Below, piece by piece: positions 2,887 through 60,692 of a stretch of DNA of 64,000 nucleotides. The first letter of the stretch is position 1; each line of letters starts with the position of its first letter. The notes below the pieces were generated by a model. That model had not been told where the DNA came from. It ran no database searches and worked only from the letters and a program-made list of their open reading frames with translations. The stretch is from Ostreococcus lucimarinus (Eukaryota), in the NCBI GenBank assembly GCA_000092065.1, contig CP000586.1; one strand, written 5' to 3'. Both the position numbers and the translations under genes were made by a program.

Positions 2887-3942
2887 ATGCCGACGCAGTG
2901 CGTGAGCACGGCGGTGATTGGGACGGCGTTTTGCGTGAAACGATGCTCGAGCGAGCGTCTGGCGCGAGATTTGGCGTTTTTCCCGCCGGAACCGCCGAGC
3001 TACGCGCTCGGAGAGCGAGAGGCGAGCGACGACGGGGACGGCGAGCGCGCGGGGACGAGCGATAGTGGAGAGCTCAGAGCGATCGCGAACGAGGAACACG
3101 TGCCGGCGACGTACGCGGCAGCGTTTCAACGCGTGTTGGACGATTTTCGCGTGGATTTGGTGACGACGGCGAGAGGGAACGAGGTGGTGGCGATGACGTG
3201 CGAAGCGCCGCCGACGAGGATATCGGCGGCGAGCGAGGACGACGCTCGAGCGATGCAAGACGGCGCGAACCTGACGTTGATTTACTCGCACGGCAATGCG
3301 GTTGATGCGGGGGAGGTGGCGCCGTTCGCGCGGAAGTTGTCGCAGCAATTGAATTGTCGAGTGGTGACGTACGATTACTCGGGATACGGGCAGAGTCGCG
3401 GCGAGCCGAGCGTGGCTGATACGTACGCGGACATCGATGCCGTCGTCGCGCACGTCATCGAACGCTTCGGAGTGTCGCGCGAGGAAATTATTTTGCTCGG
3501 ACAGTCCATTGGAAGCGGGCCGACGTGTTTTCACGCGGGCAAGCGCGAAAACGCGGGATTCGGCGCGGTCGTTTTGGTTTCTCCGCTTCTAAGTGCCTTG
3601 AACGTCGTGAGCTCGCCGCAAGCGTGGTGCACGCCGGCCAAGGTGTTCAGAAAGATGGACGTGTACAAGAATTATCAAGTCGTGAAGAACATCCAGTGTC
3701 CGATTCTGTTGATTCACGGCGATCAAGACAACGTCGTACACGTGTCTCACGGCGAGACGCTTTGGGAAACCATTCGCAAGAGCGCGAAAACGAACGAATC
3801 GCTTCTCGAACCGTACTGGATTCGAGGCGCCGGCCACGATGATACGTACGATCGTAATCCAGCCGAATTCATTCGAAGATTGCGCGAGGTGTGCGCGCTC
3901 GTACGCGAGAATTGGTACCGCCGCGTCGAAACGGCGCCGTGA
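2887..3942 (+). CDS. alpha/beta-hydrolase, ABHD17/FAM108-like serine hydrolase (depalmitoylase family)
   Basis: YSHGNAVDAGE, nucleophile elbow GQSIGSG, LIHGDQDNVVHV and GAGHDD give a Ser/Asp/His triad in the spacing typical of ABHD17 proteins. ATG is at 2887 and TGA at 3940-3942. The N-terminal start is uncertain because internal Met residues exist. Confidence 0.8.
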   Translation: MPTQCVSTAVIGTAFCVKRCSSERLARDLAFFPPEPPSYALGEREASDDGDGERAGTSDSGELRAIANEEHVPATYAAAFQRVLDDFRVDLVTTARGNEVVAMTCEAPPTRISAASEDDARAMQDGANLTLIYSHGNAVDAGEVAPFARKLSQQLNCRVVTYDYSGYGQSRGEPSVADTYADIDAVVAHVIERFGVSREEIILLGQSIGSGPTCFHAGKRENAGFGAVVLVSPLLSALNVVSSPQAWCTPAKVFRKMDVYKNYQVVKNIQCPILLIHGDQDNVVHVSHGETLWETIRKSAKTNESLLEPYWIRGAGHDDTYDRNPAEFIRRLREVCALVRENWYRRVETAP

Positions 3943-9810: not shown

Positions 9811-12438
9811 ATGTCCGCGACCGACGCCGTGGACGAGCGCCAGCGAATCACGCGAAGCGCGCCCACCGCGCACCGCGTCGCCGTCGCCGTGATCGCCGCG
9901 CGCGTCGCGTTCGACCCGCTCGGATTCGGCGGTCGCCGCGCCGGCGTCTGGGAGGACGCCCTCGCGCGCGCGCCGACGCGCGTGGACGAAGACCCGGCGC
10001 GATGCGTGCGCGACGTGCGCGCGGCGCACGCGAAGTGCGCGGTCGACGCGCTCGCGGGCGGAGGGACGCGCGAACGGAGCGCGACGGAGACGACGCGGGC
10101 GCTGCGAGCGGCGCTGGAAGACGCGACGGCGAGCGAGACGAACGAAGACGCGACGGAACGCGCGGCGCGCGATGCGATCGTGCGATGGGGATTGGAGAGG
10201 TTTTTGGACGAATTGATGGAGGTGTCGGAGAGTTTGGACGATTTGGAGGCGTTTTTTGAGGACGCGCGATGCGTGGCGGCGAACGCGCGCGCGGAGGATT
10301 ACGAGGCGGAATACGGATTCGAGACGCGGGACGTCGAGGGGTGGACGCCGATCGGAATGTTTTTGAAGCGGTGTTATCTGGGGTTTAATTTATTGCCGTT
10401 TGAGGCGACGCTGACGTTGCTGGATGAGGTGCGGGCGTACGCGGAGGAGGTCGCGCGGGCAATCCAAGGCGACGAAAACGAGCCGCCGAGCGGGAGAACG
10501 TGCGCGGCGCCGGATGTGCTGACGACGCTCGTCACGCGCGCCGTCGAGGCGTACGATACGCACGCCGTAGATGCCGATCGAGTTTTACCGCCGGAAGCGC
10601 TCGAGGATCTGCGGGATTTGGCGCCCGAAGTGCCGACGCTGCACTACTTGCGTCACGCAGCGGCGTTGCGACGGAAAGATTACCCAGCGGCGGTGGAGCA
10701 TTTACATCGACACTTTGACATCAGCGGCGAGCACAACGAGTTGAGAGCGGATTTAGGAGGCGATAACGTTTTAGTGGGCGGGTTTGAAAGCGCCAACGCC
10801 GGGCGCGAGCGGTTGCAGACGGCGTTATTGGCGCTCGCGTCCACGCAGCTGGCGTTTTCGCACGCGGACGAGGCGACGTTTGCGATTTCCGAAGCCGTGC
10901 GCACGGCGCAGCAGAATGGTGACGAGGCGTCGTTGGCGCACGCTCTCGCGCTCACAACGGCATTGTTGTCGCGAGCACCTTTGGACGCGTCGAGTCATCG
11001 AGCGTCGCACCAAGACGAGCAACTGCCGACGCTGCTCCGACGATTGACGGCGCAAGCGGCGGAGCTGGCGTCGCCGCATCTCATCGCCTACGCCTCGCTC
11101 GCACTCACAAAGTACGCGATCGACAACCCGTCTCGGGCACTTGGGTCACATTCGCACGCGCCCGGCGGTGGTGCCTTGTCTCGCGCGGCTCGAGGTGGCG
11201 TAGACATCGTGACGACGCCGGCGCTCGCGACGCGAAACCTCGTCGACATCGAGTTAACGCGACACTTCACTCAACTCGTCTCCGCCACGCCCGCATCCGC
11301 GGCGTCGTTAGCATTAGCGCGTGAGTCATCGGGTGACGGCGTGCTCGGCGCTGGGAACGATTTGTACCCACCGCCCAAAGGTTTCGCGTCGACGCCGACG
11401 TGTGGGTACACGCTGAGCGCCACGGCGACGGCGCTCAGGAGCTTGACGGGTACTGCGTCTACGCTCGCTGCGGAGGGTTGGAGCACGTATGGGTGCAAAT
11501 ATATCGGTCGACTGTACGCTGTTCGTCAGCTTTACCTCGATCGCGAAGCCTCGGCGGATGAAACCGCGACGAGTTGCGCGACGCTCATCGCTGCGGCGAG
11601 CGAGTGCGAAGGCGTTGAAGCCGCCGACGAAGTGTGTCGACACGTCGAAGAAATATTCGGCAAAGATGGATGCGAAAACAAGTTTTCTGCCCTGGCGTTT
11701 TTAAGGCTACACTACGACCGCGCCGTAGGCGTTGGTTCGTACGCGACCGCGAGACGCGCCGCTCAGCGCATGCTCGCCGTCATCGACGCGAAGTCGGGAG
11801 CAGACAACGCGGCGTACTTTGAAGCGAGGCGGATGAACGCAAACCTGGACAGGCTGATGAAGAACTTCGATGATGCCCAAAAAGAGTTGAACGCACTCAT
11901 CGCTGACGCCGAGAAAGTGAAGGACGAGCACGCGGCGATGTGGGCCAAAATCTCACTCGCCGAGACGCATCTGAGCGCCGGCGCGCCAACGTTGGCGTTG
12001 ATGCGCGCTCTACCGCTCGAGCTCGAAGCGTCCGAAAGTGGTGTCGAGCCGATTCAAACGCGTGCCTTGTGCATAATGTGCGAGTCTTGGCTCGAGCTCG
12101 GAAACTCGCACGCGCAACTCGCGCGCGACGCGTTGGACGCGCGCGCGCTTGAGCTCCTATCGAGCGACGATTTGCGCTTGCAAGCCAGAGCGTACGTCGC
12201 GTGCGCGCGCGCGCTCATCGCCACGACCGTCGATTCTGGTCATGCATCGATCGCATCTCGCGTCATCGATGCCCTCGAGCGCGCTGCGGAGCGTTACGCC
12301 AAGCTCGGCGCCCATCGCGACGCGGCGATGACGTACGCTCGTCTCGCCAAGGCGCGCGCGCGATTCGACATGGATACCGTCGCTGCCGCCGCCAAGTGCC
12401 GCGAACACGCGAACGCCTCGTTATATTTCGCTACGTAG
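9811..12438 (+). CDS. ANAPC5: anaphase-promoting complex subunit 5 (APC5/ANAPC5)-like TPR protein
   Basis: Matches, from memory, to conserved ANAPC5 blocks: GMFLKRCYLGFNLLPFEATLTLL (human GLFLRHMILAYSKLSFSQVFKLY), HYLRHAAALRRKDYPAAVEHLHRHFD (human YLSYLNNLRVQDVFSSTHSLLHYFD) and LASTQLAFSHADEATFAISEAVRTAQQNGDEASLAHAL (human LAALHCRFGHYQQAELALQEAIRIAQESNDHVCLQHCL). The C-terminal TPR-like repeats agree. ATG is at 9811 and TAG at 12436-12438. Confidence 0.65.
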   Translation: MSATDAVDERQRITRSAPTAHRVAVAVIAARVAFDPLGFGGRRAGVWEDALARAPTRVDEDPARCVRDVRAAHAKCAVDALAGGGTRERSATETTRALRAALEDATASETNEDATERAARDAIVRWGLERFLDELMEVSESLDDLEAFFEDARCVAANARAEDYEAEYGFETRDVEGWTPIGMFLKRCYLGFNLLPFEATLTLLDEVRAYAEEVARAIQGDENEPPSGRTCAAPDVLTTLVTRAVEAYDTHAVDADRVLPPEALEDLRDLAPEVPTLHYLRHAAALRRKDYPAAVEHLHRHFDISGEHNELRADLGGDNVLVGGFESANAGRERLQTALLALASTQLAFSHADEATFAISEAVRTAQQNGDEASLAHALALTTALLSRAPLDASSHRASHQDEQLPTLLRRLTAQAAELASPHLIAYASLALTKYAIDNPSRALGSHSHAPGGGALSRAARGGVDIVTTPALATRNLVDIELTRHFTQLVSATPASAASLALARESSGDGVLGAGNDLYPPPKGFASTPTCGYTLSATATALRSLTGTASTLAAEGWSTYGCKYIGRLYAVRQLYLDREASADETATSCATLIAAASECEGVEAADEVCRHVEEIFGKDGCENKFSALAFLRLHYDRAVGVGSYATARRAAQRMLAVIDAKSGADNAAYFEARRMNANLDRLMKNFDDAQKELNALIADAEKVKDEHAAMWAKISLAETHLSAGAPTLALMRALPLELEASESGVEPIQTRALCIMCESWLELGNSHAQLARDALDARALELLSSDDLRLQARAYVACARALIATTVDSGHASIASRVIDALERAAERYAKLGAHRDAAMTYARLAKARARFDMDTVAAAAKCREHANASLYFAT

Positions 12439-12599: not shown

Positions 12600-12740
12600 A
12601 TGGGGGACGCCATCGTAGCGGCGACGCAGTTGAATGACGTTCGCGTCATCATCGCGTTGTTCATCGTCGGTGCGACGTCGATCGCGCTGACGCTTCACTG
12701 GGTGCTTCGAACGGTGTTGCCCTGGTTTATAGGACTCGCG
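12600..12740 (+). CDS. SABRE/KIAA0100/Fmp27/Hobbit (BLTP2-type bridge-like lipid transfer protein) homolog, exon 1: N-terminal TM anchor
   Basis: ATG at 12600 encodes MGDAIVAATQLNDVRVIIALFIVGATSIALTLHWVLRTVLPWFIGLA, a hydrophobic N-terminal helix. The exon ends immediately before a GTGCGT donor at 12741. It lies in a different frame from the large downstream ORF. Confidence 0.6.
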
Positions 12741-12900
12741 GTGCGTCATTGCGCGGCTTCGACGCCTCGAAACGGTCGCGCGATTTCCTTTACGTCGATG
12801 CGACGCGCGAAAGGACGGACGGCGCACGATGGCGGCGGAAGATCGATGAATGATTACTCGACGTGGGACAGTCGACTGACGACGCGAATGGCGACGACAG
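12741..12900 (+). other. predicted spliceosomal intron (GT-AG, 160 bp) in SABRE/BLTP2 homolog
   Basis: Donor GTGCGT follows codon GCG (phase 0). Acceptor is …CGACGACAG|GCG with CTGAC about 22 nt upstream. Splicing joins the two frames to give …PWFIGLA|ASFVNRSGLRLSIDSF…, which aligns with the SABRE N-terminus. Confidence 0.55.
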
Positions 12901-15900
12901 GCGAGCTTCGTCAATCGAAGCGGGTTGCGATTGAGTATCGATAGTTTCGGGATCACGAGCGTGCGTGGAGTGAGCGTGAGCTTTAACAAGCCCGGCACGG
13001 CGCTGCGTAGGGTGCAGATTGCGGAGATTGCGTACGTGGGGAACGCGTCGACCATCGTGACGTGGTTGTTGAATTTCGCGTTGCGCAAGGCGAGCGGGAA
13101 GCATTTACGGGATGATTTGCCGCGCGTGGGTGAAAAGAATGGTAAAACCAGAAGTAAAAGTGATGATGGGTTCGCGGAGATGACGCCTCGTGGTAACGAT
13201 AGTCCGTCATCGGATGGAACGCCGGCGAGCGGACGAAGACGGTTCATACGCTTTGGCGTCGGATCGCTCAAGGCGGCGTTCGTGGTGTCGGGCGTAGAAA
13301 TTACGACGCGGAGTAAAGCCGACATAAATACGGAGGATGGGTTGCAAAAGCAGTCGTCTGATTTAGGTCGCGCAAAAATGACGAACACTAAAAAGAAGGC
13401 GATGACGCGCGGCAAGTGGAGATTGATGAAGGGCATCGCGTCCTTTGTCGACATCACGGTCGTATCGCTGACGGTGCGCGAAGAAGATGATGATGACGTC
13501 GACATGTTGTTTTGTGATAAACTCACGTTTGAAGCGTCTGGCAAGGCCGGAGCTTCGCTGAAATTCCTCATCACGGCACGTATGCTGCGAGGCAAGGATG
13601 GTTGGAGCATGACAGACACCAACGTGAACCTCGTCGCGGAGTTTGATTCCGAGACGAAAACTATCGTACCTGTGCACGCGGGATTGAGTGGTTCGACCTT
13701 GTCTCTCGTGAAGCGTGTTGGCGAGCGAGCGAAGAAGATCGAGACGAAAACAGATTTGGCGCCGATTACCGTCAAACAACAGCAAGGTCCGCACAAGGCT
13801 GTGAGGGGTCTACTCAAAGTGCCGAGGAAATGCAAGATAGAATTTAAACGCGTCGTGATGGAGAATAAGAACCAGGAAGCACCGTTGACTGGCGTGATGA
13901 CGCATATGCAATTCTCGGTCGAGAGAGTGAGCGCGTCCAAAAAGGGATTTCGTCTCTTTCGAAAGCAACAGCAAGTCGTCTCGCCGTTTGCCTCCACGGC
14001 GTTCGAGGCGGACGCGTGGGCAGAGGTGAATATGTCCGTGGCGGATGCAAAATTAGTGCATGGAAAGCATCAGACATTAGCTCTCATCAACGCGCCGAGT
14101 GCCTCGGTATTCTTGTCGCTTTCAGAGAAAGCACTCGGCGACGGCGGCAAATTGCCCGCCACCGCAACGTTTACGGTGGATTCGTGCGATTTTAGGCACC
14201 ATGCCGATGCGGCAGATTTAGTCGCTGCGTTAAAGGCGCAGAAAACGAAATCAAGAAACGGCTCCACTAAGTCGACGAACACAAAAAAGAACTCGGCGCC
14301 GTGGGACGTCGTCGATGCGCAGATGATGTGCAAAACGTCGCTATGCGCGAGAATGTACGACGAGCACGGGGCAACATCGTGTCAGTTTCTCACCGAGCAG
14401 ATTCGTGGTCGATATGGAAATTTAGTCGATGAAGGGACGTGTATGCTAGTTAGTTCGAGCGCGTCAGACAAGCGCGGCGTGTGCACGATGTCACGCGTAC
14501 AAGTGACGGTTCCCGGTTACCACCCCGTCGTGCAGATTGAAGCCATCAGCGTTGCGCTATCCGAAGCTGCCGGAAACGCGGTTGAGTTGTCGGAAACTAC
14601 CATCGATTTGAACATGAACGAAGCAGGTGAACTCGCAAAGAAGATTGATGCCGTCGCGAAGCGCGCCAAGGCAACCATGGCGAGCGCAAAAGGCGATTCG
14701 TCTGACAAGGCGACGTCTTCAAATAAGGTGAAGAAATCTACACGCGTCATCTTGGTCGACACAGCGATGCGTGCTCGATGCACGATGACGCCTTACTCGA
14801 CGTTCGGTGAGATACCGCAAAACTCGCGCGGCGATGAGCCTGTAGAGTGCGCGCTCGACATAAGTTGTCCGCTCGCAGAGATGTCGCAGCCGGAGGCAAA
14901 CTTAACGAGAATGGCGGCGGGTGGTTTCACAGTCTCTATGTACGACACCATTCAAAGACCCGCCAAAGCCGAAGAGGCGAAGAAAGATTCGCGGTGGGTC
15001 GGACGAGTCAATTACGAAGAAGTCGCGGTAGAGAACAACCGCGTGATGCTAGTCGGAAGTCTCGATGTTGAGTACAAACAAGGCGCCAACAAGCGCGCGG
15101 CAGTATCCGTGGAAGGCGTCGAATTTGATTGGGAACCGGATGCGCATTTTCTCGCACTAGAAATTTCAAACCTGGCAAAGGCTGCAAAGCCAGCAAAGAT
15201 GTCGACTGACGGTACGCAAAACGCCTCGAAGGATCAAACAAAATTGGATCTTTCGTTTGACGTGCGCAAAGTCAGCGGCTCGTTCTTTGTCACGCCGGGC
15301 GCGTGCGCGCAAGTATCATTTGGACTTATGGACGCGCGCCCACTCGAAAAAACGTGCTGCGTGAGAGATGTGACTTTTGGTATGAACGGATACACGATAA
15401 CGGAGTTAGAATTGATCTCCGTAACTCAAGACGAGTGCGAACGCACGTTGCCTCATGTCGCAGCGATCACACACGAAGACGCCGAAGACATCGCCAGGCG
15501 CCGCAAGTTTCAAATTGTGGTTGAGAAGGCAAAGCTCATGCTTCCCGCAAACTTAGACCTCGGCGACGCCATGGTAGCCATGATTATAGGCGAAGCGGTA
15601 TTCTCCGACGTCGTGAAAACGACTGGGAAGCGCGCAAAGAAGGAGCGAATTTCGTTGGCTGCCAATTTACCCGCCTGCGCCGAATCGTCTCCGTCAAAAC
15701 CGGCGACTGAAATCAATGTCAAGGTCAGCAGTATCGAAATTGAAGTCGAAGACTCGAATGATTTGGAGCGTTTTATGCGTGCAAAGCAAGCTGCATTGGG
15801 ATCTTGCATCGCGGCCGCGGAGTTTACGTCTTCCACTGAAGAGGCGATGCGAAGCATCACCACGACGTATCTCCAGCATAAGGAATTCTTAGCAAACGGC

Positions 15901-18900
15901 GGTGGCTCCGCGTTGCACATGGATATAGGCAGCGTCACCTCTACGGCAGTGTGGGGAGGTGGTAAAGGCGATGGTGATGAGCTCACAGCGAAAGCAGGCG
16001 CGCACGTACGTCGTGTGGATGCTCCGTATAGCGATTCTGTGTCTTTGCAGATGCAAAACGTTTTGACGATGCACACAAGCGTAACCGAAATGCGCGTCTG
16101 CGTGGCGGATTTGACCGCACGTCCTATTTTCATGTGTAGTGAAGCCACGATCGCAGGGACATTTGTGCAGGCTAGACAATACGCCCCGCGCATATTGACG
16201 GGACAAGTTGCCCTCCCTGTCGGACGAAGACGATGGGCGAAGACAAACGGACCCGACACGCCTTCGCGACCGACGGCGATGTGGTACACAGATGCGACTT
16301 TTGACATCAAAGAAGCTGATATATTTGTGGCGACGTGCATTGAGCCGTATTTGTTCAATGTGTCGCGAGAGCTCACGACGAGACTCGTCCTTCCACGCCT
16401 GCACAAGCACATTCCAGGAGGCGGAGGTGGACGTCCGCCGACGAAGGAATACGATCGAAACAATCCCAGACCGCCGAGCATGCCCTGGTGGGATATTTTG
16501 AGAAGTCAGTGGCGCGGATTAATGCGTATAACGATGATTCAGTCCGGTGCGAAGGTGGATAGTCAAGGACAGATTGAGCATCTCGGCGCGCACGGGGGAG
16601 ACTCGTTTGCGAGCGAGCTAGAGATTTTCGCCGACATGTGGGAGTTCGACATGAAGCCGCGCAACGTGGTCATTCGTAGCGCGAACTTCACGATATCAAG
16701 AATTCAAGATGATGAAGAGTGTACCGAAGCTTCGACGCCACGCGCGGATGAACCATCGCCGAAGCATAAGTTGGTCATCTTCCCGGTCATGTGCGTCAAG
16801 GCAGATTACGAATTCAAAGCCCTCCTCGATGGCGGCGATGGTCATCGTACGCACTACAGACACGACTCAACGACTGGAAAGGAGCTTTTCTCCAGAGATT
16901 TGACGCGCTCAAGTGCTTGTTTTGTGAATCTCGATGTCGATCTGGCGTCCATGGAAGAGTTCGTCACGAAAATGGTCAACGCCGCGACCATGGATCGCTT
17001 CGTCGAATACGTGAGAAATCTTACCACTGACGTGCCATCGTTCGAACACCAGGGCCACTATTCGAATCCGACCATAGCGCTGACACCAGATGACGTTGAG
17101 TTCATGAAACAATGGGAACATGGGATGAAGAAGCCAATGGTCGCGCTGCGGTCGATCTGGAACTTGCGACCGTGGGGCGCCCCGCGACGGGTAAAACACC
17201 CAGAATCGATAAGTTTGGTTGACTTGTTCGCAAGCATCGACACTGTCATCACCTCGAGCGTCATTCATGTGGTGAACGCTTCGAGCGACGAGACAGCTAA
17301 TGCGTACGGGGCGTGTTTCTGTCTCAAATCGGTGCATTGCGTCGCGAAAAAAGCGCCTCGGACCAAGGTGGAATTCACCCTGCGAGCAGATTCGTCGCAA
17401 TTCCACGTGCCTGAGCGTGACGGCAGTCTCGAACGTAAGGGATCGAGTCCACGTCGCCTCGCTAATCTTCGCGCTGGATCTATTACCAACAGACTGAACT
17501 TTGCAGAGCTCGACGACGTCGTCAAAGAGATGTTGCAAGGAAGCGCCAAGAGCCCGTCACAGGCAGATGATGGATCGGCTTCGCGCCCGACGTCCACGGA
17601 TCCAACGTTGGTATTAGACACGAAAAGACTCGAGATTACTCAGCGCAATGAAGATTCAGTGGCCAGCCAGGGCATTCAGATCGAAGTTGACGCTCCTCGG
17701 ATCTTAATTGAAGCCGAACAGCGGAACGCTATCCTCGGCTGGATCAACGCCATTTGGACGGCGGCGCAGACGGAAAGACGCGAGCCGACTTGGACCGAGC
17801 TCAATCGCATCCTAAAGTCAGCGGATAAACTGTCGGGAGTGAGTCGACGTCGCCGTGAATTAGACGATATCATGGGCGATGGACCAAGTTTGCACGCGCT
17901 AAGTGCGGAAGAGACGCTCGAAAAGAATTACGAATCACCGAAACGTGCGACGGAAGCTGTTGTGCTCTTCGTCATTCAAATCACCGCTCCGCAAATCAAT
18001 TTTAAGGGCAAAGATGCCGCTGGTCGAATGTTACTCGCAGCCGAAGGCGGACTTGTGGTTGGTAGACGAATGGACGACGGCGGTTCGACGGGTCGTCGTC
18101 TCGTCACGGTATCTTTACAACAAGTTCAAGCGTACGTGGCGCCGACGAACGTCGACTTAAACGCCGGTGTGCAGTGGTTGCGGGAAAATCATTCTTCGGT
18201 GGATGGCATACATACTTCTTTGGTTCGTGACGACGTATTCGAAAGTGGCGACGGTCGCAAAGAATCAGGTTCGCTCTTGCGACGCATTTTCGCTCCAGGT
18301 TCGATGGTTTTTGAGCACGCAAACGCCGTCACAGCGACGCAAAGTCGCATAACCGACGCCGAGTTGTACGCGTACAACGAGCCGACGGAGGCTGATGTTC
18401 AGGCTTTCGGTAAGCGCACGGCGAGCGAGACCAAAGGGGAAGCGGTGAGCCAATTTTCAATGCGTTCTCCCGAAATCGTCGCGGAAATGAATTCGAGCCA
18501 GTACGTTGTTTTGATCGACGTCATGGCGAGCCTATTCTTGACACCAGCGGCTTTGGAGCGTCCTCGACCGAGCTTTCAGGCTTCAAAGGTTTTGATGAGT
18601 CGTGATCGAACGTTGAGTGACACGGTTGCGCTTGAATCTTCAGCTATCGTCGCGAAACCGATGATGAAGTTGATGGCCGCTCGCTGGGCGGTGGAGAGTA
18701 TGGAGAAGAATTATCGCCGCGCGGTCGCTCTGGCGCCGAGCGAAAAGCAGAAAGTCCTTCGTGAAATCGATGTCCTTTGGTCCGCTGCGCAGAAGGCTGA
18801 GTTGCGCGTCCTCGCTGCGGTGCATCAAGCCGAAGAGAACGATAGGCTCTATCGGCGGCACTCCGCGATTCGATTAAGTCTCGAAATCGAACACGCGGCT

Positions 18901-20160
18901 TGGACTTTGTGGCAGGGTGGGAGTCCTTTCATCTCCGCTCAGCTCTCGCGACTGTCGCTTTCGCGCGAACGCCAGGTTGACTCTTCTGGGATGCTGCGAT
19001 TTAAGCTGCACGGTTTAAGTATGGTGTCGCTCGATGAAGGCTGCGTCGATCAGATGTTTTCTCGCTGGATTCCACCGGGAAGCGTGCACGAATCACGCGC
19101 GCGTAACGACGCGCCGTTGATTGACTTTTTCTCCATCCGCGCGGGATCGGCGCCGGAGAAACCGGTATACGACCATTTGGAGCTGAGTGTGCAACCGTTC
19201 GAGGTGGACATCAAGCACTCGCAGTACAAAATGATTTACCAATATCTCTTTCCAATGACGAAGTCCAGCGATCACGACGCGTTTGAGAATGTTTACAGGC
19301 GTCCGGCGCTCGCCAAGAATGCGGAGATGTCGCCGCGCGAGAGCTTGATTCGGGCGCAATCTATAAACGCAAAGGGTGTGCATCTGACGCCGCTTGAATT
19401 GCCGTCGGAGATGTCGGCGTCAAAGCATCGGCGACGATGGCGTTGGAACGAAGAAAAAGATGAAGTTCTCGAAGAGTTTGAAGACGTGCATGCGAAAAAG
19501 GGCGAAAAGGGTATTGATCACAAAACCGTACTTTTGCGCTATTTCAGAATTCATCCTCTGCACATGGAGATGACGTACGAAGGCAAATCACGCGGGTTCA
19601 GAGACTTGCAACTCGGCGTCGACGCCTTTGCGTACGAAAACTTTTCCGGTCGCTGGCGTGACTTGACGTCAGAGCTTAAAAACCACATCGTATGGAGCGT
19701 GTTGAAATCGCTCGTCGGCTTTCGAGGAAAGTTTGTCGAGAGCAAGATCGATGACACGCAGTCCATCTTCATGCGCGTCGCGGAGCGGTTGAAGAAAACT
19801 GCCAACTTGCTCCCGAAGCCCAAACCAGAAACTTCCAGCGGCGCCGAGCACGATTCCGAGTCGGAGACGGCCGTCGACGACCGAATTAAGTCGCAGACGT
19901 CCCAGGCCGAACTCTTTCGCACCGGATGGAACGACGTCGACGTCGATATCGAAGTACCGCGCGGCGATGGTCGAAAAGCGCCGTCGCGACGCTTCTCGAG
20001 GAAGAAGAAGAAACCTCGCCGCATCCGCCCAATCAAAAACACCAAGAAATTCCTCGCCACGGTCGGCATTGGCTCCTACACGCCGAGCGGTGCCGAGGGA
20101 ACGCCTTCTTTGCGCAGCCGCACCGAAGTCATCGACGCGTGGTCCACCCCAAACTTGTAA
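12901..20160 (+). CDS. SABRE/KIAA0100/Fmp27/Hobbit (BLTP2-type bridge-like lipid transfer protein) homolog, exon 2 (main body, ~2419 codons)
   Basis: The continuous 7.2-kb ORF begins ASFVNRSGLRLSIDSFGITSVRGVSVSF, matching the KIAA0100 N-terminus (…KIGSFRFFWIQNVSLKF…) right after the TM helix. The protein has the very large repetitive beta-rich body and C-terminal Apt1/FMP27-like region expected for this family. Total size is about 2466 aa. Acceptor CAG is at 12898-12900 and a CTGAC branch motif sits ~22 nt upstream. TAA is at 20158-20160. Confidence 0.7.
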   Translation, partial: ASFVNRSGLRLSIDSFGITSVRGVSVSFNKPGTALRRVQIAEIAYVGNASTIVTWLLNFALRKASGKHLRDDLPRVGEKNGKTRSKSDDGFAEMTPRGNDSPSSDGTPASGRRRFIRFGVGSLKAAFVVSGVEITTRSKADINTEDGLQKQSSDLGRAKMTNTKKKAMTRGKWRLMKGIASFVDITVVSLTVREEDDDDVDMLFCDKLTFEASGKAGASLKFLITARMLRGKDGWSMTDTNVNLVAEFDSETKTIVPVHAGLSGSTLSLVKRVGERAKKIETKTDLAPITVKQQQGPHKAVRGLLKVPRKCKIEFKRVVMENKNQEAPLTGVMTHMQFSVERVSASKKGFRLFRKQQQVVSPFASTAFEADAWAEVNMSVADAKLVHGKHQTLALINAPSASVFLSLSEKALGDGGKLPATATFTVDSCDFRHHADAADLVAALKAQKTKSRNGSTKSTNTKKNSAPWDVVDAQMMCKTSLCARMYDEHGATSCQFLTEQIRGRYGNLVDEGTCMLVSSSASDKRGVCTMSRVQVTVPGYHPVVQIEAISVALSEAAGNAVELSETTIDLNMNEAGELAKKIDAVAKRAKATMASAKGDSSDKATSSNKVKKSTRVILVDTAMRARCTMTPYSTFGEIPQNSRGDEPVECALDISCPLAEMSQPEANLTRMAAGGFTVSMYDTIQRPAKAEEAKKDSRWVGRVNYEEVAVENNRVMLVGSLDVEYKQGANKRAAVSVEGVEFDWEPDAHFLALEISNLAKAAKPAKMSTDGTQNASKDQTKLDLSFDVRKVSGSFFVTPGACAQVSFGLMDARPLEKTCCVRDVTFGMNGYTITELELISVTQDECERTLPHVAAITHEDAEDIARRRKFQIVVEKAKLMLPANLDLGDAMVAMIIGEAVFSDVVKTTGKRAKKERISLAANLPACAESSPSKPATEINVKVSSIEIEVEDSNDLERFMRAKQAALGSCIAAAEFTSSTEEAMRSITTTYLQHKEFLANGGGSALHMDIGSVTSTAVWGGGKGDGDELTAKAGAHVRRVDAPYSDSVSLQMQNVLTMHTSVTEMRVCVADLTARPIFMCSEATIAGTFVQARQYAPRILTGQVALPVGRRRWAKTNGPDTPSRPTAMWYTDATFDIKEADIFVATCIEPYLFNVSRELTTRLVLPRLHKHIPGGGGGRPPTKEYDRNNPRPPSMPWWDILRSQWRGLMRITMIQSGAKVDSQGQIEHLGAHGGDSFASELEIFADMWEFDMKPRNVVIRSANFTISRIQDDEECTEASTPRADEPSPKHKLVIFPVMCVKADYEFKALLDGGDGHRTHYRHDSTTGKELFSRDLTRSSACFVNLDVDLASMEEFVTKMVNAATMDRFVEYVRNLTTDVPSFEHQGHYSNPTIALTPDDVEFMKQWEHGMKKPMVALRSIWNLRPWGAPRRVKHPESISLVDLFASIDTVITSSVIHVVNASSDETANAYGACFCLKSVHCVAKKAPRTKVEFTLRADSSQFHVPERDGSLERKGSSPRRLANLRAGSITNRLNFAELDDVVKEMLQGSAKSPSQADDGSASRPTSTDPTLVLDTKRLEITQRNEDSVASQGIQIEVDAPRILIEAEQRNAILGWINAIWTAAQTERREPTWTELNRILKSADKLSGVSRRRRELDDIMGDGPSLHALSAEETLEKNYESPKRATEAVVLFVIQITAPQINFKGKDAAGRMLLAAEGGLVVGRRMDDGGSTGRRLVTVSLQQVQAYVAPTNVDLNAGVQWLRENHSSVDGIHTSLVRDDVFESGDGRKESGSLLRRIFAPGSMVFEHANAVTATQSRITDAELYAYNEPTEADVQAFGKRTASETKGEAVSQFSMRSPEIVAEMNSSQYVVLIDVMASLFLTPAALERPRPSFQASKVLMSRDRTLSDTVALESSAIVAKPMMKLMAARWAVESMEKNYRRAVALAPSEKQKVLREIDVLWSAAQKAELRVLAAVHQAEENDRLYRRHSAIRLSLEIEHAAWTLWQGGSPFISAQLSRLSLSRERQVDSSGMLRFKLHGLSMVSLDEGCVDQMFSRWIPPGSVHESRARNDAPLIDFFSIRAGSAPEKPVYDHLELSVQPFEVDIKHSQYKMIYQYLFPMTKSSDHDAFENVYRRPALAKNAEMSPRESLIRAQSINAKGVHLTPLELPSEMSASKHRRRWRWNEEKDEVLEEFEDVHAKKGEKGIDHKTVLLRYFRIHPLHMEMTYEGKSRGFRDLQLGVDAFAYENFSGRWRDLTSELKNHIVWSVLKSLVGFRGKFVESKIDDTQSIFMRVAERLKKTANLLPKPKPETSSGAEHDSESETAVDDRIKSQTSQAELFRTGWNDVDVDIEVPRGDGRKAPSRRFSRKKKKPRRIRPIKNTKKFLATVGIGSYTPSGAEGTPSLRSRTEVIDAWSTPNL

Positions 20161-21456: not shown

Positions 21457-21785
21457 CGGCGGCCGAGCGCAAGTGAGCTTAAGAGCTCGCGAGCCTAAGA
21501 GCTCGCTCGCGAAGAGCCATCCGACGCGTCGGCGCCGAACGCTCGCGACTTCGTCTCGCCGCACGCGCGCGCGAGCCGACACACGCCGAAACGCCCTTCG
21601 TCGCGCGTTCTTTTTCATGTAATCTCATCGTCACCGACTCACGCGTCTCGCGCCCTCCCGTCGCGATCCGTCATCCGCGCCGTCTCTCGCGCCGCGCCTC
21701 CGCCCGGCGCCTCGGCGCGGTGCTTTTTGAGATCCATCGTCATCCGCACATCGACGCCCGCGCCCCCCACGCGCGCGAGCGCGCG

Positions 21786-22991
21786 ATGAAGATCAAGTGC
21801 GGTCAGTGCGGAGAGGTGTTCGCGGACATCGCGCGCGCGAAATCGCACGGCGCGACGACCGGACACGACAGTTTCGAAGCCGCGAACGATGACGATGCGA
21901 CCGCGACCGCGACGGCACACGCGACGAACGCGACGCCCGTCGACGGTGACGCCGCGCCGGACGCGGTGAAAGAAGACGCGACGACGCGCGATGAGGCGTC
22001 GACGCTGAAAGAACCGAGCGTGCGCGAGGATTTATTGCAAGAATTGACGGAATTGATGGGATTCGGGAGAAACAAAGCCGTGCGCGCGTTGTACTACTCG
22101 AAGGCGGATTCCGCGGAACGGGCGATCGATTGGATAGAGCGACACGAAGACGATGCGGACGTGAACGAACCGTTGTTGGTGGAAGATGAAGGCTTGAAGG
22201 CGCGAGAGGTGAAGACGGTGAGTAAGATGACGCCGGAGGAAGCCAAGGCAAAGGCGGACGAGTTGCGTAGAAACGCGGCCGCTAAAAAGGCGGAGCGGTT
22301 GTTGGAGGAGAAGGAGATGGAACGACTGCGAGAGCAAGAACGGATCCGGAGCGGGAAAGAATTGTTGGAGGCGAAGAAGTTGGAAGATGATCTCAGTTTG
22401 AAGCGAAATGCCGAGCAGAGGGCGGCGGAGAAGGCGGAGATGGATCGAGCGCGCGCCGCGATTCGCGTGAAAATCGACGAAGACAGACGAGAGCGTCGAC
22501 GAAAGCTCGGATTGCCGGAGGAGTTATCGCCCGAGGAGATGGAGGAGGAGCGTCAACGCGAGGAGGCGCGTGCGCAGGCGGCGCAAGAGGAGATAGCTCG
22601 CAAGGCTGCGGCGGGGATGTACGTCAAACCGGTTTCGAAATTGGAAAATTTACGCAAGCACTTGGTGGACATTAAAAAGGCGTTCGCCGAAGACGCCGAC
22701 GCCGTGACGACGTGCTTTAAGACGCTGTTGACGTACCTCGGCAACATCGCCCGCGATCCGAGCGAAGAAAAGTATCGCTCTATCAAGCTCTCCAACGCCG
22801 CGTTTCAAAAGCGCGTCGCCGCCGTGGGGGGCGAAATCTATCTCTTGGAATTTGGTTTCGTCGAAACTGTCGACGACGCCGGAGAAAAGCGTCTCGTGTT
22901 ACCGCGCGACGGCGCCGACCCGGTGTTATTGCGCACCGCGGGCGAGGAGCTTCACGGCGCGATTGAGAATCCATTCTTTGGCGCGCTTTAG
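21786..22991 (+). CDS. UBA- and PUB(PUG)-domain protein with N-terminal C2H2-like zinc finger (putative Cdc48/p97 adaptor)
   Basis: The ATG at 21786 begins MKIKCGQCGEVFADIARAKSHGATTGH, a C2H2-type finger. A UBA domain follows (EDLLQELTELMGFGRNKAVRALYYSKADSAERAIDWIERH), then a long charged coiled-coil. The C-terminal PUB domain reads …TLLTYLGNIARDPSEEKYRSIKLSNAAFQKRVAAVGGEIYLLEFGF…. The listed start 21720 is GTG. Confidence 0.65.
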   Translation: MKIKCGQCGEVFADIARAKSHGATTGHDSFEAANDDDATATATAHATNATPVDGDAAPDAVKEDATTRDEASTLKEPSVREDLLQELTELMGFGRNKAVRALYYSKADSAERAIDWIERHEDDADVNEPLLVEDEGLKAREVKTVSKMTPEEAKAKADELRRNAAAKKAERLLEEKEMERLREQERIRSGKELLEAKKLEDDLSLKRNAEQRAAEKAEMDRARAAIRVKIDEDRRERRRKLGLPEELSPEEMEEERQREEARAQAAQEEIARKAAAGMYVKPVSKLENLRKHLVDIKKAFAEDADAVTTCFKTLLTYLGNIARDPSEEKYRSIKLSNAAFQKRVAAVGGEIYLLEFGFVETVDDAGEKRLVLPRDGADPVLLRTAGEELHGAIENPFFGAL

Positions 22992-42598: not shown

Positions 42599-44887
42599 AT
42601 GTCTAGCGCGGCTTTCGAAGAGGTCGGGCTGTGCCCGGAGCTCATCGTCGCCGCCGATCGCGCGGGGTACGCGCTACCGACGCCCATTCAAAGCGAAGCC
42701 ATTCCTCTGGCCCTGACCGGTGGGGACGTTCTCGCGAGCGCGGAAACCGGGAGCGGGAAGACGTTCGCGTTCGGTGCGCCGACGCTGCAGCTCGTGCACG
42801 AAGCGATCGATCGCGAGCGCGCGGATGCGCGCAGGAAAACGACGGAAAAGGCGCGAGACGTGGAAATTTTGGCCAACTCGGCGCGACGGCGCGGTTTGAG
42901 CGCGAACGCTCGAAGCGCGACGTGCGCGGTGGATTACGATGCGAACGTCGTGCAGAGCCGAGCGACGCAGAGTTGGGGGGGCGTGCGGGGAAGATTCGGC
43001 GCGGACCCGCGAACGGGGGCGGAACGCGCTTTAAAGGTGTGCTTTGAAGTCGAGGCGCGCGACGAAGGGTTGGCGCGATGCGGGTACTCGAGTCGGTTCG
43101 GCGCGCTGGACGGTCTCGGCGCGGACGCGCACTCGTACGGGTACGGGGGGACGGGGAAGAAATCGCACAACAAATCGTTTGAGGATTACGGGGAGAAGTT
43201 TGGTAAGGGCGATTGCGTGGGATGCTTGCTAGATTTAGAAAACGGCGTCGTGACGTTTACGAAAAACGGCAAAGCGCTCGGCGAGGCGTTTCGATTGAGC
43301 GAACAGAGCGCGAAATGCGACGGGTTGTTCCCGGCGGTGTGCGTGAAAAACGCGGAGTGCGTCGTGCGCTTGGTGGAAAGTGAGTTCAAGTACCCGATGC
43401 CCGAAGGATACGTCGCGTTCGGATCGCTGCGAGGCTGCGACGCCGTGGACGGCGACGACGCCTCCGCCGGGGACACGCTCGAAGCGGGCGCGCGTAAGCC
43501 GCGCGCGCTGATTCTCGAACCCGCGCGCGATTTAGCCGAACAAACGCACGAGTTTTTCGTGAACTTTGCGTCGGAGTTTCGCGATCCCACGCTCGTGCCC
43601 GGGTTGTTCATCGGCGGCGTGAAGGAGGGACCGCAGCATCAGCAATTGCGCGACGGCGTGGACATCGTCACCGGAACGCCGATTCGCATCCTGGAGCTCG
43701 CCATGAACGGTAAGCTCGATCTCAGCGCGTGTCGTATCTTCGTCTTGGACGAGGCCGACCGCTTGCTCGACACCGGCAATCAGGCGCCGATTTTGAAGCT
43801 CTTCGAGCGCATGCCCAAGCACGCCGAGTCCTCGGCGCAGCGATTACAGGTGATGCTCTTTTCCGCCACGTTGCACTCGCCCGAGATTCGCAAACTCGCC
43901 GATTTTCTCACCGTCAACGCCACGTGGGTAGATTTGAAAGGTAAGGAGGCGGTGCCCGAGACGGTGCATCACGCCCTGGTGCTCGTGGACCCAGCAACAG
44001 AGGACGTCGAATCGCTCTCACCCGCGGCGCCGACGGATCGTCTGCACTCGCTCGCGACAAAGCTCGAGGGCGACGACGCCATGAGCGAGTCTATCAAGCG
44101 CTTGAAACCGCACATCGTGCGTAGAATCATAGATGCGCACGATATGGATCAGTGCTTGATCTTTTGTCGAACGAATTTCGATTGCGACAACTTGGAAAAG
44201 TTTCTCAACGAATGCGGCGGAGGGAAGAGATTCCGGGGGCCGTTGGTCGGCGGCGTCGAAGGAAAGTATTCGTGCTGTGTCCTCGGAGGTTCGCGCCACA
44301 TGGATGAGCGGCGTCGAAACTTACAAGCGTTTAAAAATGGTGACGTGAGATTTCTGATATGCACCGATGTCGCCGCTCGAGGGCTCGACATTAAGAACCT
44401 GCCCTACGTCATCAACCTGACGTTGCCGGATCGCAGCGAGGACTACATCCATCGCATCGGCAGAGTAGGTCGGGCGGACACGATGGGTCTGGCGATTTCC
44501 ATTGTCGCCTCAAGGAACGAGCGAGTGTGGTATTGCACGAAGAAAGGCTACAAGCCGTGGTTTGAGCCGAAACCTGAAGACGTCAAGCTCACGTCTGACG
44601 GCGGACACACGATTTGGTACGACGAACCCAAACTTTTGAAGGACATCGAAAAGCGTATCGGTGCGACCGTGACGCCACTAGGGCCGAATTACGCGCTACC
44701 GGAAGCATTTGGGATGCACGGTGGCAAAGACGCGTACGGAAAGGCTCGCGATGAGAAACCAAACGAAGAGTTGAACGCGCACTTGGAGGCGTACGCGCCG
44801 AACGTTCGCGCGTTGGCGGTTTTGGAGACGAAAGTGCAGAGCTCGTTCTGGGATCTCAAGCGCAAGTTCGCGACGCACGTAGAATAG
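42599..44887 (+). CDS. DDX1: ATP-dependent RNA helicase DDX1 (DEAD-box with inserted SPRY domain)
   Basis: Motif I region is LASAETGSGKTFAFGAP. The SPRY insert between motifs I and Ia reads …GYSSRFGALDGLGADAHSYGYGGTGKKSHNKSFEDYGEKFGKGDCVGCLLDLENGVVTFTKNGKALGEAF…. LDEADRLL (DEAD) and HRIGRVGRA are present. The protein is 762 aa with ATG at 42599 and TAG at 44885-44887. Confidence 0.9.
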   Translation: MSSAAFEEVGLCPELIVAADRAGYALPTPIQSEAIPLALTGGDVLASAETGSGKTFAFGAPTLQLVHEAIDRERADARRKTTEKARDVEILANSARRRGLSANARSATCAVDYDANVVQSRATQSWGGVRGRFGADPRTGAERALKVCFEVEARDEGLARCGYSSRFGALDGLGADAHSYGYGGTGKKSHNKSFEDYGEKFGKGDCVGCLLDLENGVVTFTKNGKALGEAFRLSEQSAKCDGLFPAVCVKNAECVVRLVESEFKYPMPEGYVAFGSLRGCDAVDGDDASAGDTLEAGARKPRALILEPARDLAEQTHEFFVNFASEFRDPTLVPGLFIGGVKEGPQHQQLRDGVDIVTGTPIRILELAMNGKLDLSACRIFVLDEADRLLDTGNQAPILKLFERMPKHAESSAQRLQVMLFSATLHSPEIRKLADFLTVNATWVDLKGKEAVPETVHHALVLVDPATEDVESLSPAAPTDRLHSLATKLEGDDAMSESIKRLKPHIVRRIIDAHDMDQCLIFCRTNFDCDNLEKFLNECGGGKRFRGPLVGGVEGKYSCCVLGGSRHMDERRRNLQAFKNGDVRFLICTDVAARGLDIKNLPYVINLTLPDRSEDYIHRIGRVGRADTMGLAISIVASRNERVWYCTKKGYKPWFEPKPEDVKLTSDGGHTIWYDEPKLLKDIEKRIGATVTPLGPNYALPEAFGMHGGKDAYGKARDEKPNEELNAHLEAYAPNVRALAVLETKVQSSFWDLKRKFATHVE

Positions 44888-46289: not shown

Positions 46290-46628
46290 CACGCGTTCGC
46301 CGCCGTAACGACTTTTCGCGACATCTTTCGCGACGACGCGACGACGCGACGCACCGATGCGGCGCCGCGATACGACCCGAACGAGTTCGTCGCGGACGCG
46401 TTCGCGCCGACGTGGGCGGCGATGGATTTCACGCGACGGTTCGCGGCATCGACGCTCATGATCAGGATGACGAAATTTCGATCGCGCGAGGGCGAGAGTG
46501 CCGACGGGACGGGTCGGACGCGCGGGGACGACGACGACGACGACGACGCGCGAACCCGGCGCGTTCGAACGTGGCGCGTGAAATACCGATGGTGTGATTA
46601 TTTAAACACGAGTGAGATCGACGTCGGA

Positions 46629-49600
46629 TCACGCGTCGATGTTTAAGACGCACGCGACGCCGCGTAAGATCCACGCGCTCGCGTGCTCGCTCGAGGCCAA
46701 GTCGGCTTGGAAGACGAGACCGCGACCCATGGCGTCGCGACGACTTTGAGTGAAGTACACGGGCGCTTTGAAAGCGTTCGTTGTCGATGAGGAGGAGGAA
46801 GAAGAGGGCATCGTGGTGCGTTCTATCGGGACGAGACGCAGGATGGGGAGCTCGCGCGCCAAGCCGCGGTCGCTTGGATGCGCCAGGACGCGGCGTTCGG
46901 CGTCCCAAATCGCGCCTTCGAGAAATAAACCCGAGATGTAACAGCCTATCTCGGGTTTGGCGTCGATTTCATCCGCGGAAACGTACGGGGTGACTTCCGT
47001 ATACATCGTGCTCGCGTCTAAAGGCCAACCACGAGAGCGACACGCGGTTTGAATGAGTGCCGCGATGTACGTTTCCGGGCAGTGTAAACCGCTGAGCCAG
47101 ATGACTTTTGGTTCGCCGTCGACGGCCCACGACTTGTACTGCTTCTCCCGCGTCTTGTACCACGTCATCCAAGATTGTACGTCTTTGTCTGTCGGTGGCG
47201 CGACACTTTTCCACTCCTCCGGTAAGCGCCCGCGCGAGAGTGAATCCGCGACGGCGTCGAGTTCTCGCGACATGCCGATTTCCCCACTCAGCGCCTTGAC
47301 GAGCTCTCGCAACGAGTGTCGAAGCACCAGCTTTAACGCGTTGTGACGCTCAATCTCCTGGAAGAGTACCACGGTCGTCGGCGATGGAACTTCATCTCCG
47401 CGCTGACGCTGGAGTTTTATCAAGTCAAACTCGAAATCTTCGTTCGTGACGACGTTTAAGATTTCGTTGACGATGGCGAGCAAGGCGCCGTTTCCATCGC
47501 TCGAGCCAGCGCTCTCGTCGTTCGACGAAGCCGAAATGGAGAGTTTACTCTGGAGCGATAAGACGTTAGACCATAACGCTTTCGCTGCTCGTGTAGAGTG
47601 TGCGACGTCTGCGTTGGCGTGAAGCCCGAGTACTTCAGGTGTCTGCGCGTCTGGAAGTTCATCGATGACGCGCGATTGCTCGTCGTACGAAGATTCCGGC
47701 GGCGGCAACTCATAACGAACTCGAGCTTCTTCGTCGGCGTAAAACATGAACTTGTGAAAGCCATCAAATAAGAAATCGCCAAAGTACTCGTCCAGATACG
47801 CGCTCAAGATACGTCGATCGTAATGATCGCTCACGCGTCCACCGTACATGGCCTCACCTATGAGATATTTCAACGCCGCCCACGGAATCATTCTCGAGCC
47901 GCCGCCGCCGGTGTTCACGGCGGCAACTTTGTTACAATAAGTCTTGATCAAACTGAACGAAATTCGAAAATCGGTTTCGTTGAAATCATACGCAACGTTC
48001 CATCCGAGCTTACCGTACTTTCGTCGCTCTTGCACGGCAGCGTGGAAGAAGGCCAGCACGTACGCTAAAGATCTAAAGAAAGGGTTCGCGCAACTCCCCA
48101 AGACGTCTTCGGACAATCTCGCGTACGACGCCTTCATGTTCATCTTGAGCCCGTCGGGGGGTTCTGTGACAACTTTGAGACTTTTTTGCAGAATACCGAT
48201 CGGGAACGTTTTGATCGGGTCGGTGGTGAGCCACAAACGGAAGTCTTTGTGCGGGTTCGCCAATCCGTCGACGACTTTTTCGAGCGCCGGCAGCCATTTG
48301 GGGAGAAGATGACAGTTTTGCAACATGAGCCACAAACCTCGCGAGGCGCACGTAAGAATAAGTTCCTCGGCTTTAGGTCCCATGCCTTGCCCAAGGGCCA
48401 TGAACTTCAGTTTGCCTCCTGCCTTGAATCCCATCGTTTCTCCCAACGCAAAAATATCAAACGCCGGATCTGCGCCAGGGGAGAGAATGAACACCACAGG
48501 TGTCTGCGCGGAAGACAATTTAAATATGCTTTCGTAGTCTGAAATCGGAGGCGTTACGTATCTTGAACCCATGGTTTCAGTGATGTAGTTCGACACCGCC
48601 ACCGTGACTCGATCTAATCGAGCGCAACGCAACAAGCATAGGCGCTCAAAACTGGACAGCGACGCCGAGTAACCATCTGGAAGCGCTACGGATTCGGGTT
48701 GTTCGCAGTCGTACCATGCGCGCCACGCATCGGCGTTGGACGTGATTCGATCGACGATTCCGTTTAGTGTTGCGCACTTGTCGTCATTAGCCGCGATGTG
48801 CTCGTCTAAATGCATTAAATCTTGCCAACCACGTTCGGACCACCATGGAAGCGGTTGCGAATCCCCGGAGGCGGCGTCAAGCGTGACGTTGCCCTTGAGG
48901 AAGAATCGTAGGAGGTTGCCATTCAATCGTCCATCACCGTCTTCGATTCTCGTAGTCATTTGAAACGAAAGCGCGAGTTTATCGCGCTTGAACAAACCGA
49001 GACATGCAAATTTGTACACGTCGTACGTCAACCTATCCACAAGATCACTCAAGCGCTCGTCCAGTTGATCGCGCACGGGCGTGACATGAAGCGTGTTGCA
49101 GAACACATCCAAAAAGCTCGAAAGTGAGTACTCGTACATCGCGTTGAGATTAGAGAGCGCTGAAATGACGAAGAAGAGTATCGCGCCGCGCTTTGCTACG
49201 GGAGAGTAGCACGACTGTGCCTTGTTTAACTCTTTCGCCGAACGCGCCGCCGCCACGAGCTTTTCAGAAATCTCTGTAGACTTTGTCTTCGCGCTCTCGA
49301 GTGTTTCGATGAGCTCCACGTTATCAACGATTTCACCCTGTGCGGTGGACAACTCATAAAGCAACGTGTCTTCGAGTTTCTTCAACAGTGCTCGATTCGC
49401 GACGGTTTCCTTGACGAGTTTTTCTCGCTCTGTTTCAAGATCTGGGCGCTCTTGCTTCACCGTGACATTCAAAAGTTGCTCTTGGAGCCCGAGCTCAGTG
49501 ACAGAGTAGTTGATTATAATCGTTTTACCCGTCACATCTGGATCGTAATGGGGATTTGGAAGTTTCGTCGTCATGTACAGGCGGAAGTTGTCGTCCCACT

Positions 49601-60569: not shown

Positions 60570-60692
60570 TCCGCGTCGAAGAATGCGCGACGACGCACGC
60601 AAAGACCTTGGACTTTGCTTTGACTGAGAAAAAAGACGATTCGGCTAAAAATAAAACACGCACTGCATTCAGCGACGTGCGGCGCGCGGAAG
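60570..60692. promoter_or_regulatory. putative bidirectional promoter/5'UTR region shared by the dynein heavy chain (-) and RIIa-domain protein (+) genes
   Basis: Only ~123 bp separate the two divergent ATGs. The region is AT-richer than its flanks (…gactgagaaaaaagacgattcggctaaaaataaaacacgcactgcattcag…). Confidence 0.4.

Follow-up and report, generated by a model that had tools for sequence, protein, structure and literature searches.

Where does the protein encoded by the large gene at positions 12600-20160 of a 64,000-nucleotide (nt) stretch of the Ostreococcus lucimarinus CCE9901 genome (contig CP000586.1; hereafter the window) begin, and what is that protein? The genome itself is credited to Palenik et al. 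2007 (PMC2483917). An earlier note, made from the letters of the window alone, had proposed that a small 5' exon carrying a membrane anchor is spliced to a very long open reading frame (ORF) coding for a lipid-transfer protein of the BLTP2 type. We conclude, with a probability of about 0.92, that the gene is the O. lucimarinus orthologue of BLTP2 (Hobbit/SABRE/Fmp27) and consists of two exons: the first supplies the initiation codon together with a single hydrophobic helix, an intron of 160 nt is removed, and the second provides the rest of the 2466 amino acids (aa). The elements of the gene are as follows.

12600..12740, plus strand: exon 1 (coding sequence, 47 codons), opening at the ATG and coding for the hydrophobic helix of the N-terminus; its peptide matches the first residues of XP_001418322.1 exactly, and 7/7 orthologous loci have an equivalent exon
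12639-12710, plus strand: core of the hydrophobic helix in exon 1, roughly aa 14-37
12741..12900, plus strand: spliceosomal intron of 160 nt, phase 0, with signals matching the published O. lucimarinus consensus
12741-12746, plus strand: donor GTGCGT
12874-12881, plus strand: branch-point motif GACTGACG; its branch A (12879) precedes the intron end by 21 nt
12898-12900, plus strand: acceptor CAG
12901..20160, plus strand: exon 2, coding sequence that runs without interruption for 2419 codons, followed by the stop codon 20158-20160; body of the BLTP2/Hobbit-family protein
15103..19746, plus strand: stretch that runs colinear with SABRE of plants (aa 782-2329; hhalign; includes the PPSMPWWD...WRG motif)
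17932..19794, plus strand: PF10344 (Hobbit/FMP27/BLTP2) region, aa 1725-2345 (Pfam, E=1e-41)

A mechanical listing of ORFs gives the large frame as TTG 12925..20160, 2411 aa. This frame is open from 12880 only, following a TGA at 12877, and its first in-frame ATG, at 13180, lies 100 codons in. Upstream, the frame from ATG 12600 begins MGDAIVAATQLNDVRVIIALFIVGATSIALTLHWVLRTVLPWFIGLA, and the donor GTGCGT follows directly on the anchor exon; exon 2 then opens at 12901 with GCGAGC (ASFVNRSGLRLSIDSFG...), its peptide starting ASFVNRSGLRLSIDSFGITSVRGVSVSF and sharing the reading frame of the long ORF. The TTG start, the ATG in another frame, the donor, the CAG acceptor with a CTGAC-type branch motif upstream and the in-frame join are thus all found where the earlier note had placed them, and joining 12600-12740 to 12901-20157 yields a product of 2466 aa. 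A continuous in-frame exon, which the note had named as one of the observations that would overturn its model, is impossible, since the 160-nt intron offsets the frames of the two exons by +1.

The intron is of the spliceosomal type that is typical of the O. lucimarinus genome apart from the intron-rich segment of chromosome 2. For this species, Irimia and Roy give GTGCGTG as 5' splice site and GACTGACG as branch point (PMC2483917), and the intron analyzed here has the donor GTGCGTc, the exact motif GACTGACG and a CAG 21 nt past the branch A. The composite pattern GTGCGT / GACTGACG / AG occurs twice in the 64 kb of the window, against 0.65 occurrences expected from first-order Markov simulations, and each of the two sites sits at the 5' end of an ORF whose start must lie upstream. 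The pattern alone is suggestive and not decisive, so that the case for the intron rests on comparative data and on an intron-less contig from an orthologue.

For the comparison we used seven orthologous loci from environmental assemblies, with 45-91% protein identity, making eight sequences with the window. In all seven, an upstream exon that starts with ATG and measures 138-156 nt codes for a hydrophobic helix and is followed by a phase-0 donor GTGCG[T/C] or GTACG[T/C]; a CTGAC or CTAAC lies 19-47 nt ahead of a CAG acceptor (AAG in L004), and exon 2 starts with GCGAG in six of them. The intron lengths are 141, 149, 155, 161, 166, 179 and 196 nt, with remainders of 0, 1 and 2 after division by three, and the exon-1 frame runs into stop codons within the intron in five loci. 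Even between the window and the closest locus, L007 (91% identical), the intron shows a 1-nt indel, and the L007 intron contains a stop codon. The exon-1 peptides, in turn, can be aligned across all eight sequences and share a conserved ...R.VLPR.IG.. end.

The removal of the homologous intron can be read directly in one orthologue. The cluster of protein P0010 contains P0149, which is labelled MMETSP0930 and assigned to taxon 548131 (Ostreococcus sp. RCC789); MMETSP is a transcriptome project. The N-terminus of P0149 includes ...PRSLAII/ASFGNSSG... (the slash marks the exon junction), in agreement with the junction expected for the genomic locus L005. The 8214-nt contig that encodes P0149 (L008) aligns to positions 2572-2785 of L005 and then to 2941-3400, and the 155-nt intron in between (L005 2786-2940) is precisely missing. 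The first ~568 nt of L008 have no match to L005, to the other loci or to the window, and this 5' end may stem from a chimeric assembly or from a strain difference. L008 1-568 also holds telomere-repeat-like palindromes (AACCCTAAGGGTTTAG). The separate anchor exon of the earlier note is therefore borne out both by the seven loci and by the intron-less contig: the 160-nt intron is real, and a separate exon of 141 nt carries the hydrophobic anchor.

These same data bear on other ways of reading the locus. Prokaryote-style gene callers give versions of 2394-2411 aa that begin within exon 2, in line with an anchorless protein translated from ATG 13180 or from a non-ATG codon inside the large ORF, the upstream ORF being unrelated. 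We find this scarcely credible, as the 100 codons ahead of ATG 13180 are kept across orthologues, the exon-1 peptide is conserved in 8/8 sequences, exons 1 and 2 are contiguous in the intron-less contig of the orthologue, and exon 1 is included in the reference annotations of two species. Moreover, nuclear eukaryotic genes rarely start at TTG or GTG. Next to no credence can likewise be given to the ORF at 12600 being a gene of its own for a small membrane protein, or else an upstream ORF, unspliced and of 114 aa. The exon-1 frame does stay open across the whole intron in the window, up to a stop codon at 12942-12944, but in 5/7 orthologous loci it meets stops within the intron, the peptide that read-through would give is unconserved, the intron length varies with indels, and nothing would then provide a start codon for the large ORF.

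Splicing accompanied by regulated intron retention, giving a second product, would be compatible with the two-exon model, and we consider it very unlikely. The conservation of the intron position in 8/8 sequences and the in-frame, stop-free 141-nt intron of the L001 lineage would agree with it; however, transcript evidence in its favour is lacking, phase and length are not conserved and stops occur in most lineages, and the identity between the window and L007 is lower in the intron (90%) than in the flanking exons (94%). If retention did take place, the product in O. lucimarinus would be an anchor-only peptide of 114 aa, whereas in the L001 lineage 47 aa would be inserted in frame. Very unlikely, too, is the idea that the intron, found just after the anchor in every Ostreococcus-like lineage examined, was kept for regulation, tuning the amount of anchored BLTP2.

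Concerning the identity of the protein, a Pfam search with the 2466 aa gave a single strong match, to PF10344 (142.7 bits, with a cut-off of 24.5), which is also carried by 11/11 close homologues. The match pairs aa 1725-2345 with profile positions 1736-2348 of 2372, and these near-equal positions indicate colinearity between the protein and the family model over its full length. An hhalign comparison between a profile of eight orthologues and the SABRE protein of Gossypium aligned query positions 782-2329 to SABRE 740-2459 (1399 columns, probability 99.9%, E=2.4e-37). By sequence, membership in the BLTP2/Hobbit/SABRE/Fmp27 family, as put forward in the earlier note, is solid and covers the C-terminal two thirds of the protein. 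The single N-terminal transmembrane helix that characterizes the family is also predicted: of all 19-residue segments of the protein, residues 14-32, which exon 1 encodes, are the most hydrophobic (Kyte-Doolittle 2.27), and the hydropathy maximum of the whole protein falls in exon 1 in seven of the eight sequences.

A number of observations weigh against the reading of this gene as an anchored, spliced BLTP2 orthologue. The transcript-level support for the junction comes from an orthologue that is ~48% identical and not from O. lucimarinus itself, and the exon-1 helix of L003 is only weakly hydrophobic (Kyte-Doolittle 1.42). A Pfam search with the N-terminal 640 aa of eight orthologues returned noise and no Hobbit match, and a local hhalign of the N-terminal alignment with SABRE 1-800 was not significant (2.6% probability), although it pairs both hydrophobic helices and the segments that follow them (GLRLSIDSFGITSVRGVSVSF with VGISIEFQIGGWNCLKDIAVKL). 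An AlphaFold2 model of residues 1-640, built from an eight-sequence alignment, is unreliable (mean predicted local distance difference test score, pLDDT, 40.2; predicted template modelling score, pTM, 0.31); this low-confidence model has a helix at 8-37 followed mostly by strands, a secondary structure that would suit a beta-groove rod, but at this quality it does not demonstrate the groove fold for the protein. Finally, a sequence search of the PDB for a relative gave no match at E<=1. The likeness to the N-terminus of human KIAA0100 that the earlier note had drawn consequently stands for the architecture alone, a transmembrane helix followed by a region of beta-strands. It is known, however, that individual repeating beta-groove (RBG) domains of Hobbit diverge past detection (PMC7613979), so the N-terminal mismatch does not exclude family membership.

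Hobbit/BLTP2 proteins open with a transmembrane helix that serves as an anchor in the endoplasmic reticulum (ER), and take the shape of a rod, lined by a hydrophobic groove, at sites where the ER contacts the plasma membrane (PMC7613979; PMC12406788). By homology with this family, the N-terminal helix of the Ostreococcus protein would insert in the ER membrane as an anchor, while the body would form a long repeating beta-groove rod bridging to a partner membrane, which is the plasma membrane in animals and yeast. Bulk phospholipid might then pass along the hydrophobic groove. ER anchoring, groove fold and lipid transfer are all proposed here from what is known of relatives.

The two-exon model is already known and present in both GenBank and RefSeq. 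The spliced product is identical, residue for residue and including the exon junction, to P0017, i.e. XP_001418322.1 / ABO96615.1 / UniRef100_A4RZF6, which we found in the 90% cluster of an environmental match, P0001. The claim of the earlier note to have resolved a mis-modelled 5' end therefore does not hold, since the identical 2466-aa model was already annotated and the O. tauri annotations have an equivalent spliced N-terminus. Our analysis mainly confirms the reference annotation and has little further significance. The public name of XP_001418322.1 is 'predicted protein' or 'Uncharacterized protein', and as Pfam places the protein in PF10344, this label could be upgraded to BLTP2/SABRE-like.

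Other forms of the protein occur in metagenome catalogues. P0001 itself (2394 aa) is a truncated form with a non-ATG start inside exon 2, and P0007 and P0108 (2532-2533 aa; locus L001 688-8286) read through a 141-nt in-frame, stop-free intron as a 47-aa insertion. Such truncated and read-through forms of the BLTP2 gene should not be taken as real isoforms.

The other loci considered in the window are the following.

9811-12438, plus strand: APC5 (ANAPC5; PF12862), whose coding sequence 9811-12435 corresponds exactly to XP_001418321.1
20224-21456, plus strand: SAP-domain protein
21720-22991, plus strand: UBA/PUB-domain protein
42599-44884: DDX1, an exact match to XP_001418333.1
45019-46212, minus strand: thiolase ORF (Pfam Thiolase_N/C), spliced product 433 aa
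46213-46354, minus strand: second intron, 142 nt, with GTGCGT donor, CGACTGACGACGCG, CAG acceptor and a (TGAA)n run
46355-46459, minus strand: thiolase 5' exon of 35 codons (ATG 46459), which begins MSVDAANRRVKSIAAHVG... and has a PTS2-like R-V-x5-H-V motif

The order ANAPC5 - Hobbit - SAP is found in every orthologous locus whose contig extends to those neighbours, and in three of these loci (L001-L003) the next gene after SAP is UBA/PUB. Neighbouring ORFs are separated by only about 60-260 nt. Like the BLTP2 gene, the thiolase gene appears, from its sequence, to carry a targeting signal on a small 5' exon of its own. The window also contains a dynein heavy chain as a single uninterrupted ORF of 4657 aa (46629-60602, minus strand), complete with DHC_N1, DHC_N2, AAA modules, microtubule-binding stalk and Dynein_C. 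Ostreococcus is not known to have flagella.

Among known systems, O. tauri has an orthologue of 2481 aa with 56% identity, annotated as 'FMP27, C-terminal' in XP_022839307.1 and as 'aberrant pollen transmission 1' in OUS48261.1. Both O. tauri proteins have an equivalent spliced N-terminus (...ARIISVT/ASHASKRG...), and the O. tauri-like locus L002 keeps the order ANAPC5-Hobbit-SAP-UBA/PUB of the window. The sequence of the O. tauri exon 1 has nonetheless diverged, and the L002 intron has 179 nt instead of 160 and a GTGCGC donor. With the plant SABRE/KIP/APT1 proteins, represented by Gossypium raimondii SABRE (P0012), the Ostreococcus protein shares PF10344 and a colinear region (aa 782-2329) with 23% identity in which the PWWD motif is kept. 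SABRE likewise begins with a hydrophobic helix (residues 6-24, Kyte-Doolittle 2.24) followed by a short beta-like segment, whereas the N-terminal ~780 aa of the Ostreococcus protein have no detectable sequence similarity to it.

Human BLTP2 (KIAA0100), Drosophila Hobbit and yeast Fmp27/Hob1 and Ypr117w/Hob2 belong to the same Pfam family and have a similar size. In these members the N-terminal transmembrane helix has been described as an ER anchor (PMC7613979; PMC12406788); for the Ostreococcus protein, localisation at ER-plasma membrane contacts, adaptors (FAM102/Hoi1) and lipid transfer are putative features. BLTP2 orthologues are stated to be present in all eukaryotes (PMC12406788), and a minimal green alga that appears to retain a full-length, anchor-bearing BLTP2 fits this published distribution.

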